Assembly (NCBI GenBank): GCA_963840855.1
Contig: CAWJBB010000061.1
Span: forward strand, 1 to 64,000
Direction of reading: 5' to 3'
Origin: an uncultured delta proteobacterium
Lineage (GTDB): Bacteria; Desulfobacterota; Binatia; UBA9968
DNA length: 64,000 nucleotides
Numbering within the stretch: the stretch's first letter is position 1; each line of letters begins with the position of its first letter. Position numbers and translations under genes: made by a program. Shown here piece after piece: positions 57,159 through 64,000 of this stretch. The notes below the pieces were generated by a model. It had not been told where the DNA came from and ran no database searches. It was given only the letters and a program-made list of their open reading frames with translations.

Positions 57159-58328
57159 TCAATCGTGACCTTGATCATGACCGCCGCATTCGGCAATCGC
57201 CTGCTCGAGTTCGTCTTTTACTTCCGGATCACCTTCAAGGTCCAACCGCTCGCGCAACGCCCGCGCCGCATGGTCGCCGCCAATCCGTCCCAGCGCCCAA
57301 GCCGCATGGCCGCGCACCAACGGCTCATCGTCAAGCAGCGCCAGCACCAGCGCGGGCACGGCCTCTGGAGAACCGCTGTTACCCAGCGCCACCGCGACGT
57401 TGCGCAGGAAACCGCGGCGCTTGGCGCGCCGCACCGGACTGCCGCGAAAGCGGCGGCGAAATTCCTCCTCGCTCAGCGACAGGAGCTCGGTCAGCTCGGG
57501 AGCATGGAGCCCGTCCCTGGGCTCGAAGGCCGCCTCGGTACTGGGCCGCGCCTTGACATTGTATGGGCAGATCTCCTGGCAGATATCGCAGCCAAAGACG
57601 TGATTGCCGATAAGCGGCCGGAGATGGCGTGGCATCCAGCCCTTGATCTCGATGGTCAAGTAGGAAATACAGCGGCGCGCGTCTAAAATATACGGCCCGA
57701 CGAATGCCTGTGTCGGGCATGCTTTTATGCACAGATCGCAGCTACCGCAGCGGTCGCGTATGGGCTTGTCATAAGCGAGAGAAACGCTCAGAAACAGCTC
57801 GCCGAGAAAGAACCACGAGCCTTTTTTCGGTGATATCAGGTTTGTGTTTTTGCCGATCCAGCCGAGCCCCGCCACGCCGGCAAAGTTCCGCTCCAACACC
57901 GGCCCCGAGTCGACAAAAGCCCGGCCCTCCACTGGCCCATCGTAGAAGCCTATGATTTTCGCGAGCAGGGAATCGAGCCTGCGCGTCATCAGCTCGTGAT
58001 AATCATCACCCCAGGCATATCGCGAAATCCAACCCCTGGTTCCCTTCGCCTGCCCTGGACGGTCATAGGCGGTATGATAATTCAAACCCAGGGAAACCAC
58101 TGACACCGCCCACGGAACAAGCTCCTCAGGCCGGCGGCGCAAATCGGCCGTGCGCGCCATATAACCCATCTCGCCGGCAAATCCCCGGCGCAACCAATCG
58201 GCAAATGAGCTTTCATGGGCCGGCGGGCGGACGGGGGAAATGCCTACAAGCTCGAAACCCAGACGCTGCGCTTCCTCTTTGATCCTGAGTGACAACGCAG
58301 CTATGGTATGAGCGGGCATAGAATTCAT
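57159..58328 (-). CDS. queG: tRNA epoxyqueuosine reductase
   Basis: ISRYAWGDDYH, FVDSGPVLER, AGLGWIGKN, CGSCDLCIKACP, RCISYLTIE, FGCDICQEICP, C-terminal HEAT repeat. Confidence 0.95.
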   Translation of the reverse strand: MNSMPAHTIAALSLRIKEEAQRLGFELVGISPVRPPAHESSFADWLRRGFAGEMGYMARTADLRRRPEELVPWAVSVVSLGLNYHTAYDRPGQAKGTRGWISRYAWGDDYHELMTRRLDSLLAKIIGFYDGPVEGRAFVDSGPVLERNFAGVAGLGWIGKNTNLISPKKGSWFFLGELFLSVSLAYDKPIRDRCGSCDLCIKACPTQAFVGPYILDARRCISYLTIEIKGWMPRHLRPLIGNHVFGCDICQEICPYNVKARPSTEAAFEPRDGLHAPELTELLSLSEEEFRRRFRGSPVRRAKRRGFLRNVAVALGNSGSPEAVPALVLALLDDEPLVRGHAAWALGRIGGDHAARALRERLDLEGDPEVKDELEQAIAECGGHDQGHD

Positions 58329-58516
58329 CGTGGCAGTACGGCTGGCGCAGCGGCAAAAGCAAAAATGCGGCGCAGCGCGAAACGATTCTAACTGTAGTCT
58401 TAGACGAGGTACAACAAAAAGCCGCGGGCGGTGTGCCCGGAACAATATTTTCGATGTTGAGTCTAAAGTCGTAACCCAAGACCCTAGACTCAAGAGCCGG
58501 GACAATTCCCGTATGT

Positions 58517-58963
58517 TCAGTGCAAGAAGGTATCGCTGTCGGGGCCAGGCTCTTCCTCATCAAGCAAAGCACGCCGCCCGGCAAAGCCATCCTCTATACG
58601 GTGCCAATGGCTCACCGCCTGTTCGCCCAATTGCCAGCAGAGGAACACGACCTCCGGCCCGAGCATGCAAGGAAAATCGACGAGCCCTTGTTCGACTCCC
58701 TTGCAGATGCAGCCATAACCGTGAATTTCATCGACCCCAAGCGTTACCTGGTGCAATAGGCGGGCGATGTCCGCATCCTCGCGCAGGCGATCCATCAAAT
58801 TCGGCGCCTCAGGATCGAGTTGCTGGTTCCGGATCACGATTTCGCTCTTGCTCTTGAGGCGCCTGATGTTTTCTAGAATATTTTCCAGCAACGGGCGCAG
58901 CGCCGGCAGCAAGGCGTTGGCTTCCTCGACGGTAAAGAGTTTGGAGAACTGAGAGCGATCCAT
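58517..58963 (-). CDS. DUF2203 family protein
   Basis: FTVEEANALLP, K....GLVDFP, VFLCWQLGE..V.HWH....GFAGRR. Confidence 0.9.
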   Translation of the reverse strand: MDRSQFSKLFTVEEANALLPALRPLLENILENIRRLKSKSEIVIRNQQLDPEAPNLMDRLREDADIARLLHQVTLGVDEIHGYGCICKGVEQGLVDFPCMLGPEVVFLCWQLGEQAVSHWHRIEDGFAGRRALLDEEEPGPDSDTFLH

Positions 58964-59025: not shown

Positions 59026-60324
59026 CTATAAACCCATGCCCTTTTTCAGCTCACGCAGCAGCGCGATGTTGTCCGAATGGCCGGTCATGCGCGCGGTGAT
59101 CGCGCCGCGGATAGGCCTTCCCAACAAATAAAAATCGCCGATGATGTCGAGTATCTTGTGACGCGCCAGCTCGTCAGTGAAACGCAGCTCGGTATTTACG
59201 ATCTTCTCGTCATCGATGAGAATTAAATTGCTCAGCCGGCCGCCGGCGGCGAGCCCCATCTTTTCCAGTTGGGCGACGTCTTTAAGAAAACCAAAGGTCC
59301 GGGCTGGTGCAATCTCCTCTTTGAAAGTCTCAGGTCCGCGATGGGCATAAAAATACTCCTGCCGTCCCACCGGCTTTGGGTAACGCAGTTCGTAGCGCAC
59401 TGAAAAAACGTCCGCGGGCTCGATGATAATCGACTCGCCGTCCTCATTGCCCGCCCGGTAACGCCGGTCCACGACGATCTCGCTGCATTCTTCGTCCTGC
59501 TCTTCAATGCCCGCCTCGTCGACAAGGCGGCAAAACTCGATGGCGGAACCGTCGAGGATCGGGATTTCGCTTTGGACTTTTACCAGCAGGTTGGTAATTC
59601 CGTAGCTATGCAAGGTGGCAAGAAGATGTTCGATCGTGGCCACGCTGATACCCTTGTTACGCAGTGAGGTCGCGTACCCGGTAGAGACCACATTGTCGAG
59701 ATGCGCCCGCACCGTGGCGTCCGCCGCGATACCGGTAAACAGGATGCCGCTGTTCGGCGGCAGCGGATGAAGCACCAGGCCGGTTTTGATTCCCGAATGA
59801 AGACCTTGGCCGGAGGTCACGACGCTATGCCCTAGCGTTTTTTGTTTGAGCTGGCCCGCGGTGAGCGCCCACGCAGCTGCTGACGCAGGTTTTTTGGCGA
59901 CTCTTTTTTTGTTTCCTCCGGGCGCGCTTTGGACCGTGCCGCCTGGAACGTCGCCCAAGGCGCGCCGCACGGTTAACAGCAAGCCTTCCAGCGAAAGCGG
60001 CTTTTCGAGAAAATCGAAGGCGCCGAACTTTGTCGCCGTCACCGCCGTGTGAATATTGCCGTGGCCGGAGATCATGACAACGTTCAATTCCGGCTCCTTG
60101 CTCTTGATTTCCTTTAGTAAACCGATGCCATCCGCCTGGGGCATCCAGATGTCGAGTAGAACGAGTCCGGGTTTTTCCTCCTCGATAATATCGAGCACAC
60201 GGGTAACATCGGCGGTGTCCACGACGCGGTAACCTTCGTCGCTCAAGACTTCCCGAACCGATTCCCGGACTCTATCTTCATCGTCCACAACCAGGATCGT
60301 CTGCTCCGCGAGAGTTTCAATCAC
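59026..60324 (-). CDS. lpxC: Response-regulator receiver domain fused to UDP-3-O-acyl-GlcNAc deacetylase (REC-LpxC)
   Basis: REC: ILVVDDE, LLDIWMP, ISGHG, FLEKP. LpxC: QKTL..SV...GQGLHSG, TIEHLLA, EIPILDGSA, EIAPARTFGF, RHKILDIIGD, GH..N. GTG start at 60324 after a G-rich RBS. Confidence 0.93.
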   Translation of the reverse strand: MIETLAEQTILVVDDEDRVRESVREVLSDEGYRVVDTADVTRVLDIIEEEKPGLVLLDIWMPQADGIGLLKEIKSKEPELNVVMISGHGNIHTAVTATKFGAFDFLEKPLSLEGLLLTVRRALGDVPGGTVQSAPGGNKKRVAKKPASAAAWALTAGQLKQKTLGHSVVTSGQGLHSGIKTGLVLHPLPPNSGILFTGIAADATVRAHLDNVVSTGYATSLRNKGISVATIEHLLATLHSYGITNLLVKVQSEIPILDGSAIEFCRLVDEAGIEEQDEECSEIVVDRRYRAGNEDGESIIIEPADVFSVRYELRYPKPVGRQEYFYAHRGPETFKEEIAPARTFGFLKDVAQLEKMGLAAGGRLSNLILIDDEKIVNTELRFTDELARHKILDIIGDFYLLGRPIRGAITARMTGHSDNIALLRELKKGMGL

Positions 60325-60349
60325 TCTTCCCCCCTTGCCGGACAATACT

Positions 60350-62596
60350 CTATCCGATTGCCGGTAAAGCCGCTAGTTGGTGGCGTACCGGCAGCTCGAT
60401 TATAAACCTGGTTCCCTTCGGCTCGTTGGGCCGAACGCGGATATAACCGTGATGATCTTCCACGATGGCGCTAACGATGGAAAGCCCCAGGCCCGTACCG
60501 TCCCGCTTGGTTGAGAAGTATGGCTCGAAGATGCGCGACCGCACCTCCGGCGGCAAGCCCCTGCCATTGTCCGCCACTTCGAGACAAACTTTGGTTAAAG
60601 CATGCTCATAGCTCGTGGTGATCTCCACGTCTCCCCTGCCATCCATCGCCGTCACGGCATTGTCCAGTAGATTGATCAAGGCCCGCTTGATCTGGTTTCG
60701 GTCCAACTCCAAGGCCGGGATAACGCCCGGGTGAAATTCAAAACGGATGGTGCGATGCCCCTCCTGGAAGAGAAACAACGCCTCCCGCACGACTTCGTTG
60801 AGATCATTCACGGCCAGCTCCGCCGCCGGAAGTCGCGCGAACTGGGCGAATTCGTTCACAAGACGCTTGAGTTCTTCGACTTGCCGAATGATGGTCGTCG
60901 TGCATTTATCGAGAATCGCGCCGTCGCCTTCGAGCATCTTCGCATAACGTTTCCTCAGCCGTTCCGCCGACAGCTGGATCGGCGTGAGCGGGTTTTTGAT
61001 CTCATGGGCGATGCGCCGCGCCACTTCGCGCCATGCTTCCATGCGCTGCGCTTTCTGAATCTCGGTAATATCTTCCACGAACACCATCACGCCCAGACTG
61101 CGGCCGTCGTCGTCGCGCAAGGTGGCCGCGTTGGCCACCACCGTCAGCACCCGGTCCGGCAGGGATATCGACAATTCCTTTTCGACGCTCTCGCCGTCTT
61201 TGACGTTTTCCATGATTTCGCGCATCGGCTTGAGCTGTTCGGCGGCGAAAATCCGTTCCTGCGAATGGCCCAGGGCATCGGCACCGTTTATGCCGAAAAT
61301 TCTTTCCGCGGCTTTGTTCCAAGCGGTGATCTGGCCGCCGGCATCGACGGCGATGACCGCGGCATTGACGTTGGCAAGCAGGGTCTCCATATAGCGGCCG
61401 CGCCGTTCGATTTCGAATGTCATCTGCTTTAAATCCCGCGTCATGCCATTGAAAGAGTCCACGAGGGTGCCGATCTCGTCGTCGCCGCTGGCTTCAATCT
61501 GGTAGTCCCAATTGCCCTGCGCCACTGCATGGGTTCCCTCGGCCAACTGCTGGATCGGCACAGTGATACCTTTGGCCAGATAGAGGCCGAACCATGTCGC
61601 CGCAAATATGATAACGAGGGTAATAAGAAGCAACGTGAGAATGTAGCTGTTCTTGATCGGCGTTTTGAGAAACATGGAATGCTTATACTGTTCATAAGAG
61701 CGGGAGATCTGCGAGGCGCGCTTGGCGATGCTTTTGGGAACATAATAGTCCACCACCACAGCGCCTCGGATACGCTTGCCGTCGCCGTATACCGGCGCGC
61801 CGCCGCGAATCACATCACCCTCGCCGAACTCTTGCGTGCGCGTCACTTCCAAGCCGCGCAGCGCGCCGTTCAAGAACTCGGAGTCCGCCTTGATAGTAAC
61901 TCCCGTCGGCACGTCGTTGTTAAACGCCACCACGAGCAGTCGACGGTCCGGAGTGAACAACTCCACCGTGCCAAGGTTATATTCCCGCTGCTTGCGCGTG
62001 ACGAACTGTTTCAGCTCGGCGATACGCTGCGCGTCAAATAGTCTTTCCTCGGTGATCAGCCGGCTCAGCTGTTTGGCATAAAAAAGCGCGTTGTTGGCCG
62101 AATTTTGATAATAGGTCTGGCCTATTTCCAGCGAACCCTGGAGCGCGCTTTCGACCTGGACGTCGAACCAGCGTTCAAACGAGCGGGTCACAAAGCCGCC
62201 GGCGATCACGAACAAGATCAAGGTCGGCACCAACGACAGGCCGACAAAGGCCAGCACCAGCCGCACGCGCAGCCGGGAGCCAAGTATGTGGCGTTTGCGC
62301 TCGAAAACCAACTTGACTAGGTTTCGGACCACCAGAAAAACCATGAGCATAAGCAAAATGATGTTGATATTGATTAACAGGAAAAAGACGATGTTGTTGC
62401 CGAGCGATTGCTCGGTAGAAGCGTCGGGGAGGTTGACCTCGAAGTACGCGAACGCCGCCACCGTGAGGGCAGTGACAACAATCACCCACGCCTCGCGCCT
62501 GCGCCGTTTGGCCTCTTCCAGTTTGAGACTTTCCGCTATCGGTTTGGCCGGGTGAACCGCTTCCATGGGACTCTTTCCGGGAACATTATCGGACAA
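60350..62596 (-). CDS. NtrY-like sensor histidine kinase (TM, HAMP, PAS, HisKA, HATPase)
   Basis: GSRLRVRLVLAF, SFERWF, HAMP DEIGTLVDSFN.MT, AWREVARRIAHEIKNPLTPIQLSAERL, NLLDNA, DNGRG, GTGLGL. Confidence 0.93.
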   Translation of the reverse strand: MSDNVPGKSPMEAVHPAKPIAESLKLEEAKRRRREAWVIVVTALTVAAFAYFEVNLPDASTEQSLGNNIVFFLLININIILLMLMVFLVVRNLVKLVFERKRHILGSRLRVRLVLAFVGLSLVPTLILFVIAGGFVTRSFERWFDVQVESALQGSLEIGQTYYQNSANNALFYAKQLSRLITEERLFDAQRIAELKQFVTRKQREYNLGTVELFTPDRRLLVVAFNNDVPTGVTIKADSEFLNGALRGLEVTRTQEFGEGDVIRGGAPVYGDGKRIRGAVVVDYYVPKSIAKRASQISRSYEQYKHSMFLKTPIKNSYILTLLLITLVIIFAATWFGLYLAKGITVPIQQLAEGTHAVAQGNWDYQIEASGDDEIGTLVDSFNGMTRDLKQMTFEIERRGRYMETLLANVNAAVIAVDAGGQITAWNKAAERIFGINGADALGHSQERIFAAEQLKPMREIMENVKDGESVEKELSISLPDRVLTVVANAATLRDDDGRSLGVMVFVEDITEIQKAQRMEAWREVARRIAHEIKNPLTPIQLSAERLRKRYAKMLEGDGAILDKCTTTIIRQVEELKRLVNEFAQFARLPAAELAVNDLNEVVREALFLFQEGHRTIRFEFHPGVIPALELDRNQIKRALINLLDNAVTAMDGRGDVEITTSYEHALTKVCLEVADNGRGLPPEVRSRIFEPYFSTKRDGTGLGLSIVSAIVEDHHGYIRVRPNEPKGTRFIIELPVRHQLAALPAIG

Positions 62597-62607
62597 TTCG
62601 AGAAATT

Positions 62608-62820
62608 CTATCTGCGAAAGAAATAAACGACAAGGGAAATCAACACGCTGACGAGCAGACAGGTGGCCAGCGGAAAATAAAAAGTAAACCGCTCGCGCTC
62701 AATCGTAATATCGCCGGGCAGGTGGCCGAGCCAGGGGATCTTGCCGCCGAGCAAGAAAATCACCCCAAAGAGGACTAACACGATGCCAATAAAGATAAGA
62801 GTTTTACCCAGACCCTCCAT
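62608..62820 (-). CDS. DUF2905 family small membrane protein
   Basis: LGK.LI..G, LGHLPGDI.IER..FTFYFPLATCLLVS. Confidence 0.9.
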   Translation of the reverse strand: MEGLGKTLIFIGIVLVLFGVIFLLGGKIPWLGHLPGDITIERERFTFYFPLATCLLVSVLISLVVYFFRR

Positions 62821-62978
62821 GATCGGTCCCTCCGAGTAAACCTATTATGGTCAAGCTGTTGCCGGGCTTCCCGCCTCATCTCCAGGCTCGTGGATCGCAG
62901 GAGCGCAAACGCCAATTTTTTCAATCAGCATCGAGCATTTTCCATTTTGCATTCCGCTATCACCACCCACCCTACTCT

Positions 62979-64000
62979 TCAGAACAGACTCGGCTGGTTT
63001 TTCGCTCCGATCGGTTTCACTCCACTCTGACTCCGGTCAAAATGTTCGTAAGCCAAAGCCGTGGCGACGCGCCCGCGGGGCGTGCGCTGCACGAACCCGG
63101 CCTGGATCAAAAACGGCTCGTAGACATCCTCGATGGTATCTTTCTCTTCCCCTATGGCGGCGGCGAGGGTTTCCACTCCGACCGGCCCACCGGCAAATTT
63201 ATCGATGAGCGTCAACAGCAACATCGTGTCCATTTTGTCCAGTCCCCGCCGATCGACCTCTAACATTCGCAACGCCTCGTCCGTGAGCGACTTTGTAATC
63301 GTTCCATTACCTTTGACCTGGGCGTAGTCGCGCACCCGCCGCAACAGCCGGTTCGCTATCCTTGGCGTGCCGCGCGAGCGGGTCGCGATCTCTGCAATGC
63401 CGGCACTATCCGCATTCACGCCGAGTATGGTCGCGGAGCGTTTTAAGATGCGCGAAAGCGCGCCGGTGTCGTAATAGTCCAAGCGATGGATGTGGCCGAA
63501 GCGGTCGCGCAGGGGGGAAGTCAATAGCCCGGAACGCGTGGTCGCGCCGATCAGCGTAAAGCGCTTGAGCTCCAACTTGATGGAACGAGCAGCCGGTCCC
63601 TGACCGATCATGATATCGATCTGATAATCCTCCATCGCGGGGTAGAGCACTTCTTCCACCACATGGTTCAAGCGGTGAATCTCATCGATAAAAAGGACAT
63701 CGCCTTCTTCGAGGTTGGTAAGCAGCGCCGCCAAGTCGCCCGGCCGTTCGACCACGGGCCCGGAAGTCGCCCTAATATTCACGCCCCTCTCACGGGCGAT
63801 GATGTAGGCCAATGAAGTCTTACCCAGGCCGGGGGGACCGTGAAAAAGAATATGATCGAGCACATCGCCCCGGCCCTGGGCCGCGACAATGGCCACTTTC
63901 AAGTTTTCCTTAATTGACTCTTGACCGACGTACTCATCGAAGCCGCGCGGCCGCAGATTGGCTTCGTAGTTTACTTCGTCGTCGTCCCTATGCCCATCGA
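62979..64000 (-). CDS. ruvB: Holliday junction branch migration helicase RuvB (5' end outside the window)
   Basis: [12 protein letters not shown] in frame upstream of the listed [45 protein letters not shown]. Confidence 0.98.

Follow-up and report, generated by a model that had tools for sequence, protein, structure and literature searches.

Can a two-component system act directly on LpxC, the enzyme of the committed step in the making of lipid A, rather than on the expression of its gene? The question is raised by a locus in a 64,000-nucleotide stretch of DNA from an uncultured delta proteobacterium (GenBank assembly GCA_963840855.1, contig CAWJBB010000061.1, positions 1 to 64,000; hereafter the window), in which the gene following an NtrY-like sensor histidine kinase encodes a response regulator receiver (REC) domain continued in frame by LpxC. 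An earlier note, made from the letters of the window alone, had proposed that here the two-component system regulates the enzyme itself, and all the computational checks that it named spoke for this. From the sequence comparisons described below we consider it fairly probable that in this protein LpxC serves as the output part of a response regulator, and that the NtrY-like kinase would phosphorylate the receiver and thereby modulate LpxC post-translationally.

Both parts of the fusion were matched far above the family cut-offs, with 103.1 bits for PF00072 (Response_reg; cut-off 30.2, E value 1.2e-29) and 276.2 bits for PF03331 (LpxC; cut-off 27, E value 3.8e-82), the latter model being covered nearly whole (positions 1-267 of 268). 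The NCBIfam equivalog model for lpxC, TIGR00325, was passed with 236.1 bits (cut-off 187.25). As the earlier note had read from the letters, all phosphorylation residues of the receiver are present, namely the acidic pocket D21/D22, the phospho-acceptor D65 (LDIWMP), S93 (ISGH) and K115 (EKP), and the LpxC part is complete with its Zn-binding and catalytic motifs E239-H240 (TIEH), H396/K397/D400/D404 (RHKILDIIGD) and H423 (GHSDN). Based on E. coli LpxC numbering, in which we take H79, H238 and D242 to be the Zn ligands and E78 and H265 the catalytic residues, their equivalents in the window are H240, H396 and D400, and E239 and H423, respectively. The assignment of the receiver to the NtrX type stood as well: NtrX was its best NCBIfam family (130.7 bits; second-best family 101.6), and its nearest solved structures are 4d6x/4d6y and 5m7n-5m7p, which we take to be Brucella NtrX. 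The NtrX model itself (NF051870) has a cut-off of 600 bits and was matched at positions 3-119 of 452 only; by these matches the window protein is NtrX-derived yet no member of the NtrX family. The linker, estimated before at about 35 amino acids (aa), has 37 and is indeed rich in Gly, Lys and Ala (Table 1).

Table 1. Features of the fusion gene and of the kinase gene upstream of it (window positions; residues counted from TTG 60345).
Feature	Position	Strand	Remarks
REC::LpxC fusion open reading frame	59026..60345	(-)	439 aa from TTG 60345; stop codon 59026-59028
Probable fusion start GTG	60324	(-)	gives a product of 432 aa
Shine-Dalgarno-like AAGGGGGGAAG	60326..60336	(-)	3' end one base before GTG 60324
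Receiver (REC) domain	59968..60297	(-)	residues 17-126; Pfam PF00072
Disordered inter-domain linker	59845..59955	(-)	residues 131-167, 37 aa, basic, Gly/Ala-rich
LpxC (UDP-3-O-acyl-GlcNAc deacetylase) domain	59044..59844	(-)	residues 168-434; Pfam PF03331
NtrY-like sensor histidine kinase	60350..62596	(-)	748 aa; stop TAG 60350-60352; upstream of fusion

Both Pfam domains are present in each of the best 120 homologues among 5.8 billion proteins; these homologues have lengths of 428-448 aa and identities of 71-97%. An Atlas query with the homologue P0009 gave 30 matches, 17 of them clusters with Response_reg and LpxC that are named simply LpxC, and in the three clusters shown both domains were present in every member. 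The fusion architecture is, as had been suspected, already in databases but unremarked, annotated only as LpxC or NtrX. The earlier note had allowed for a deletion or an assembly error at the junction; contigs from two other DNA studies bridge the linker with neither indel nor joint (X2 at 59729-59982, X4 at 59728-60020). A misassembly or chimaera was therefore rejected, both domains being found in 120/120 best matches and X2 and X4 crossing the junction. A contig from an RNA library (X15, 59781-60159) bridges the linker likewise without indel or joint, and another (X16, 60307-60616) spans the boundary between kinase and fusion; as DNA may be present in such libraries, these contigs prove neither transcription nor a single transcript, and no weight is given to uncovered stretches. 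Read-through of two genes or an internal start was rejected for the window, because residues 131-175 hold no in-frame ATG, the codon whose absence before LpxC had been reported, nor any GTG or TTG, and a GGAGGA at ~59917-59922 in the linker region is followed by no start codon. The true start of the fusion is probably GTG 60324 rather than TTG 60345, since AAGGGGGGAAG lies just upstream and the nearest homologues have 432 aa.

We then compared the functional residues across 105 distinct fused proteins, aligned down to ~40% identity with four rows cut or frameshifted. D65 is Asp in 101/101 fused rows that reach this column, D22 is invariant in 101/101 and K115 in 105/105, and position 93 is Ser or Thr in 103/103. 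In the LpxC part E239, H240, H396, K397, D400, D404 and H423 are invariant in 108/108 fused rows, and the Zn ligands and the catalytic Glu and His also in 21/21 stand-alone rows. At 17 LpxC columns a residue conserved in >90% of the fused forms occurs in <15% of the stand-alone ones. The linker, examined in 50 homologues, varies from 25 to 64 aa (median 37) with no conserved sequence.

The kinase upstream deserves its description as NtrY-like, as five Pfam families were found over cut-off (NtrY_N, HAMP, PAS, HisKA and HATPase_c). NtrY_N is partial here (37.3 bits, cut-off 23.2; model positions 6-157 of 291) and was matched almost end to end in the kinase homologues at loci L136 and L146. A hydropathy scan led to four hydrophobic segments (~residues 36-56, 64-99, 109-140 and 312-346), and the hydrophilic domain of ~170 aa between the third and the fourth (141-311) is presumably periplasmic. 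Brucella NtrY is said to use a haem-binding PAS domain as redox or O2 sensor. The kinase stop codon lies 25 nucleotides (nt) from GTG 60324, with TTG 60345 following the TAG and GTG another 21 nt on, and a terminator scan gave no terminator-like site in the gap between the two genes. This synteny, as well as the architecture itself, turned out to be widespread: in 69/80 related loci the fusion has a kinase homologue directly upstream, and 6/80 end on the kinase side. Neither a second NtrY-type N-terminus nor an NtrX orthologue was found in the genome of the window, where identity is 39-43% for the best other receiver and ~33% for AAA+ matches to a long-form query (see below); since there is no such orthologue, the fusion is, as far as sequence tells, the sole evident partner of the kinase. 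A second lpxC, which the earlier note had also considered, was equally absent, the fusion being the only LpxC match in this 7.1-Mb genome (94% complete, 8.27% contamination), and the fused gene is likewise the only LpxC match in 5/5 other carrier genomes tested. LpxB, LpxK and LpxD were found in the genome of the window on contig C21. Because the fusion is the sole LpxC beside these three, deacetylase activity of its LpxC part is supported indirectly.

How common is the fusion, and in which forms? Two architectures were observed among the 80 related loci, a short one (REC-linker-LpxC) and a long one (REC-AAA+-LpxC, with or without a helix-turn-helix (HTH) region), and 0/80 proved stand-alone. 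Short fusions make up 59/80 and carry the record labels Candidatus Binatia, Deltaproteobacteria, Syntrophobacter and others. The long forms (677-769 aa) combine REC, Sigma54_activat, AAA_lid and LpxC in one frame and are labelled Thermodesulfobacteriota or Nitrospinota, the former type with an additional Fis-type HTH region (by eye and alignment), the latter without HTH. Their LpxC belongs to the same subfamily as that of the window (55-64% identical), and they are annotated merely as LpxC or, by the Joint Genome Institute, as NtrX. When the long form L071 was used as query, 943 proteins were obtained at E<=1e-50, and the best 120 of these 943 comprised 118 with REC, AAA+ and LpxC and 2 without a receiver match. 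Judged by sequence, the window protein is the short form of a large NtrX::LpxC fusion family.

For a survey of the phylum of the window, 301 evenly drawn genomes were searched and the 150 rows listed were classified by ourselves. Fused forms occur in 76/301 genomes among the matches listed: a full-length short-fusion match in 39 including the window's own (G000), a match to LpxC only, within an open frame of 450-497 aa, in 12 (four fetched, 4/4 being REC::LpxC, the other eight counted as fused from frame length), and LpxC in open frames of 554-837 aa in 25 (14 fetched, 14/14 being long forms, the remaining 11 taken to be such). The rest of the matches listed are ~40% identical and lie in frames of 281-393 aa, except a frame of 476 aa in G236, which is a stand-alone gene; 8/301 genomes gave no match to the fusion protein. 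In the phylum of genome G301 (record title Nitrospinota), LpxC was found in 29/33 genomes, in an open frame of 538-962 aa in 28/29 with the 29th fragmented; the domains of these fused forms were confirmed by Pfam in L077 and L080 only. A similar picture was obtained when only the LpxC domain was used to scan 1.84 billion representatives, as LpxC begins at residue >=126 in 36 of the best 41 rows (46-63% identity). The remaining five (P0242, P0263, P0274, P0275 and P0278) are short and may be fragments or stand-alone genes, and below ~45% identity mostly ordinary proteins of 275-320 aa were found.

Several unusual forms were followed up. Open frames of 1423, 1378 and 1007 aa (G143, G110 and G076) raised the idea of a kinase-receiver-LpxC triple fusion, which was rejected for G143 and G110, where kinase and receiver match in different frames. 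Receiver-less forms with only AAA lid and LpxC (L076, L078) were rejected as well, the receiver and AAA+ parts lying upstream in other frames; L039 is a frameshift and L066 has an in-frame stop. Short fusions also occur in records labelled Verrucomicrobiia, Limnocylindrales, Mycobacterium, Udaeobacter and Chloroflexota (L034, L038, L042, L043, L081), four of which (not the Mycobacterium-labelled L042) share the gene order of the window at 67-70% identity; all five are probably mis-binned contigs. Seven genomes of one genus (family f46, genus g75: G079, G146, G177, G207, G237, G265, G293), 99-100% complete, gave no match at E<=1e-20, the LpxC part included, and may either lack LpxC or have a very divergent one. 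G034 is the only sampled genome seen with both a stand-alone and a fused LpxC: stand-alone lpxC, an NtrY-like kinase and lpxK lie in a row on one strand (L140, G034:C33 2000-6484), and a very divergent REC::LpxC, ~40% identical and on a long branch, is encoded elsewhere (L090, G034:C11 965-2281). At L094 (G236:C95, 923-3981) a gene for a single-domain receiver (117 aa) has a stand-alone lpxC 160 nt downstream and a REC-PAS-kinase hybrid and a sigma-54 activator fragment further upstream, which may be an independent association of receiver and lpxC. Most of the closer related loci share the gene order RuvB, DUF2905, kinase, REC::LpxC, DUF2203, QueG (window flanks 57159-58963 and 62608-63998). 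In the soil run X4 the summed contig depth rises to ~430 at 60932-61058, the HisKA H-box region, compared to 2-12 elsewhere, with loose contig ends on both sides; conserved kinase sequence recruits contigs of many other organisms here.

The origin of the fusion, which the earlier note had missed, as it had the position of lpxC within an ntrYX cluster in unfused relatives, became apparent from a maximum-likelihood tree of 129 LpxC domains, calculated after removal of five rows (three identical, two short matches). All 108 fused rows are split from the 21 stand-alone rows by a branch with 99% support in the Shimodaira-Hasegawa-like approximate likelihood ratio test. Among the fused rows short forms are mixed with long ones: seven changes are required for the short label, and at least three are forced by well-supported branches. 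As re-insertion of an AAA+-HTH block into NtrX order is implausible, a long ancestor followed by repeated AAA+/HTH deletions (at least three) would be the parsimonious explanation. The 54-aa linker of four short forms (L050, L053, L084, L132) opens with an EHRRL...-type stretch rich in charged residues, which by eye looks like a leftover of the helix leading from receiver to AAA+ in NtrC-family regulators. Among 20 stand-alone lpxC loci of the phylum an NtrY-like kinase lies within ~2.5 kb at seven, five of which also have a full NtrX. In one genus (L146, L160) the order is ruvB-DUF2905-lpxC-DUF4390-ntrY-ntrX, with the same ruvB-DUF2905 anchor as in the window. DUF4390 was confirmed at 3/3 unfused loci tested; a search of the window's genome for it gave 0 matches, the control likewise matching in 0 genomes.

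Sigma-54 enhancer-binding proteins canonically have a GAFTGA loop and a Walker B Asp-Glu pair. The unfused NtrX proteins beside lpxC retain Walker A (5/5), Walker B DE (5/5) and G[AS]FTGA (4/5). Of the distinct long fusions 146/146 retain Walker A, and both GAFTGA and the Walker B glutamate are found in 0/146, the second Walker B position being Ser (83), Ala (47), Gly (10) or another residue (6); the long forms thus lack both hallmarks of such activators. This pattern suggests that the sigma-54 activator machinery decayed after the fusion and was later lost. Taken together, the tree, the motif loss in the long forms and the intact unfused NtrX point to receiver and LpxC as the parts always retained, with the transcription parts apparently expendable.

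The same data bear on two further explanations. Signalling could be reversed, the LpxC domain telling receiver and kinase whether substrate or product is bound, for example through susceptibility to a phosphatase, with the real output elsewhere, such as DNA binding by the HTH of the long forms. The Fis-type HTH region and Walker A retained in Thermodesulfobacteriota-labelled long forms would fit, as would an internal LpxC start, which may be used in some long forms, 5/14 having Met at the LpxC start; but the GAFTGA loop and Walker B glutamate are gone throughout the long forms, those of Nitrospinota type have no HTH, and the short forms, the window's among them, have no output besides LpxC, and the genome of the window has no NtrX, so that we regard this explanation as very improbable. 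Still slightly less probable is a neutral accident, the receiver being the vestige of a deleted ntrX and LpxC constitutive. The protein did arise by AAA+/HTH loss from an NtrX::LpxC fusion, as such an accident would imply, but the phospho-site is invariant in 101/101 untruncated relatives from lineages that share only 40-50% identity, the kinase has been retained as well, and no intact member of the fused clade is without receiver, the four exceptions being frameshifts or a stop in metagenome-assembled genomes.

How the receiver might reach the enzyme was approached with structure models. AlphaFold2 modelling of the window protein (50-row alignment) led to a predicted local distance difference test score (pLDDT) of 87.4 and a predicted template modelling score (pTM) of 0.85, with disorder only at residues 1-10 and 135-162; for the latter, in the linker, pLDDT is <50. 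DSSP assigned five strand-helix pairs to residues 16-129 of the model, the (beta-alpha)5 fold of a receiver. By Foldseek the LpxC part was superimposed on P. aeruginosa and A. aeolicus LpxC with a target-normalised TM of 0.85-0.95 and a root mean square deviation of 1.6-2.0 Å, and none of the listed chains spans both domains (query-normalised TM <=0.60). A model of the homologue at L057, 50% identical and from a basal clade, gave similar values (pLDDT 88.0, pTM 0.85). According to our own arithmetic, pTM would be limited to ~0.65 if the receiver (~125 residues) were unplaced relative to LpxC (~275 of 439 residues); as 0.85 lies above this ceiling, a confidently packed domain pair is suggested, and the models hint at a defined packing of REC on LpxC.

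From these observations a mechanism may be sketched in which the membrane-bound NtrY-like kinase would sense an envelope or redox signal by its periplasmic and PAS domains and phosphorylate Asp65 of the receiver, whose state would alter the activity of the tethered LpxC, either by docking and undocking on the enzyme, by receiver-driven dimerization, or by both, and lipid A flux could thereby be set post-translationally. Receiver, flexible linker and enzyme would follow the logic of CheB, and the fusion can be counted with those response regulators that have an enzyme as output. The receiver of CheB, when unphosphorylated, lies against the catalytic domain and keeps it inhibited. CheB shares with the window protein the order of receiver, flexible linker and enzyme domain and a receiver phosphorylated by a histidine kinase; it differs in enzyme, pathway and kinase type, and a relationship in sequence exists in the receiver only. 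That this kinase phosphorylates the receiver, that the activity of LpxC responds, and in which direction, we only infer. By analogy to the alphaproteobacteria, where NtrYX represses lpxC, a lowered LpxC output upon phosphorylation is weakly favoured.

Several points weigh against this interpretation. The case for docking comes down to the pTM arithmetic, and most alignment rows are common to both models. As lipopolysaccharide (LPS) seems to be made by this organism with the fusion as its sole LpxC, control cannot be a simple on/off switch. Two proteins of the LpxC-domain scan, P0263 and P0274 (289 and 292 aa; 53% identical to the LpxC domain of the window), have no N-terminal extension and could belong to the fused subfamily as stand-alone members, or else be fragments or truncated gene calls. 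The outgroup of the tree was sampled from the window's own phylum only, a caveat that applies to its root as well. The link between NtrYX and lpxC in alphaproteobacteria was reported to be indirect (PMC7240162). Finally, the kinase is missing upstream of the fusion at 5/80 related loci (L047-L050, L053), which form one clade. For the interpretation speak five genomes with a non-adjacent kinase (G053, G105, G124, G001 and G034): exactly one full-length NtrY-like kinase is encoded elsewhere in each (5/5), 34-47% identical and with a match beginning in the N-terminal membrane region; it has no adjoining regulator gene in G053, G105, G124 and G001, where the fused gene is the only LpxC seen, and is flanked by stand-alone lpxC and lpxK in G034.

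The receiver could also govern the abundance of LpxC instead of its catalysis. E. coli LpxC is controlled by proteolysis, with a C-terminal degron used by FtsH. Control by FtsH/LapB/PbgA resembles the case proposed for the window in that LpxC, at the committed step, is acted on after translation; it differs in that the window LpxC has no long C-terminal tail and that no LapB was identified in the genome (matches to PF18073, the LapB zinc-ribbon, being RadA-like and its control unspecific). Phosphorylation might then mask or unmask a degron or bring in a protease or an adaptor, which would make it a phospho-gated parallel to control by FtsH/LapB. This would agree with the mainly proteolytic nature of known LpxC regulation (PMC12444477), and another handle would be needed, because the window LpxC ends five residues past its Pfam match. 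The only PF18073 matches in the genome, two in number, are RadA-like by eye, and the control was unspecific (10/14 genomes, including Gram-positives). However, no pointer to a protease or adaptor was found in the sequence, the conserved neighbours being RuvB, DUF2905, DUF2203 and QueG, and allostery would fit the compact two-domain models at least as well; control of abundance is accordingly graded as unlikely. The two RadA-like matches (G000:C31:75642-75725 and G000:C53:17975-18058) have the same score and frame length on different contigs, which suggests duplicated contigs, in line with the contamination of 8.27%.

Only a little less probable would be a receiver acting as a mere tether, which by docking on the membrane kinase would place LpxC at the inner membrane, or would keep both proteins at a set ratio, with the catalytic rate unchanged. 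The four predicted membrane segments of the kinase and the long, flexible and basic linker in the clade of the window would be in agreement with this, as would the suggestion, made for N. meningitidis, that LpxC is directed to the inner membrane by a homologue of LapB (PMC12444477). A pure tether, however, does not need the entire phospho-site, which is invariant, and kinase and fusion are unlinked in the genome in several lineages.

The kinase of the window, with NtrY_N, HAMP, PAS, HisKA and HATPase_c, and its NtrX-type receiver resemble NtrY/NtrX of Brucella, Rhodobacter and Caulobacter, and in R. sphaeroides both the expression of lpxC and LPS are reduced by NtrYX, as reported likewise for C. 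crescentus. NtrX is a DNA-binding regulator with AAA+ and HTH, whereas the window protein has neither and its output is an enzyme. In R. sphaeroides without ntrYX, lpxC mRNA rose 8.8-fold and more LPS was made, lpxC itself having no site for NtrX (Lemmer et al., 2020, PMC7240162). For D. vulgaris Hildenborough lpxC was described as the single target, mapped by DNA affinity purification on chips, of the regulator DVU2934, which is encoded with the kinase DVU2931 (Rajeev et al., 2011, PMC3333781), and in S. fumaroxidans lpxC adjoins the orthologous operon (PMC3333781). This pair is similar in being a two-component system with lpxC as its sole mapped DNA target; it differs in that the proteins are separate and control is transcriptional, and it is likened here by its published description. 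A natural LpxC fusion is also known from LpxC/FabZ (NCBIfam NF009667; 206 bits for the LpxC part of the window, below the cut-off of 465), where the partner is a second lipid enzyme C-terminal to LpxC and not an N-terminal signalling domain. The long NtrX::LpxC fusions share LpxC subfamily, NtrX-type receiver and upstream kinase with the window and differ by a degenerate AAA+ module, with or without HTH, between receiver and LpxC. A review of lipid A regulation from 2025 in the Journal of Biological Chemistry mentions NtrYX, in the text consulted, only as repressing the transcription of lpxC in R. sphaeroides and C. crescentus, and a term search of this text gave none of the words "fusion", "fused", "receiver" and "response regulator" (PMC12444477). 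In the literature searched, no description of a REC-LpxC or NtrX-LpxC fusion was found.

These comparisons allow a wider proposal, which we offer tentatively. An ancient envelope homeostat may exist that works without FtsH, LapB or PbgA, in which an NtrY-type membrane kinase reads the envelope, possibly LPS or its precursors, and tunes LpxC directly through phosphorylation of the fused receiver. It could have begun as a transcriptional lpxC-DUF4390-ntrY-ntrX module that was hard-wired by gene fusion, and would now be the only form of LpxC in the Nitrospinota-labelled phylum and in numerous lineages of deltaproteobacteria type; what connects NtrYX with lpxC in alphaproteobacteria and Desulfovibrio would then be this ancestral circuit in its transcriptional version.

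So far, control of lipid A levels has been described as proteolysis in Enterobacteria and as transcription in a few alphaproteobacteria, and it is an active question. If the phosphorylated receiver indeed modulates LpxC, this would be the first direct two-component control of the LpxC step, and the puzzling link between NtrYX and the cell envelope would be explained. The natural variants, i.e. stand-alone, long with degenerate AAA+, long without HTH and short fusion, provide a ready-made series for its dissection, and the taxonomic weight of the fusion is unusually broad.

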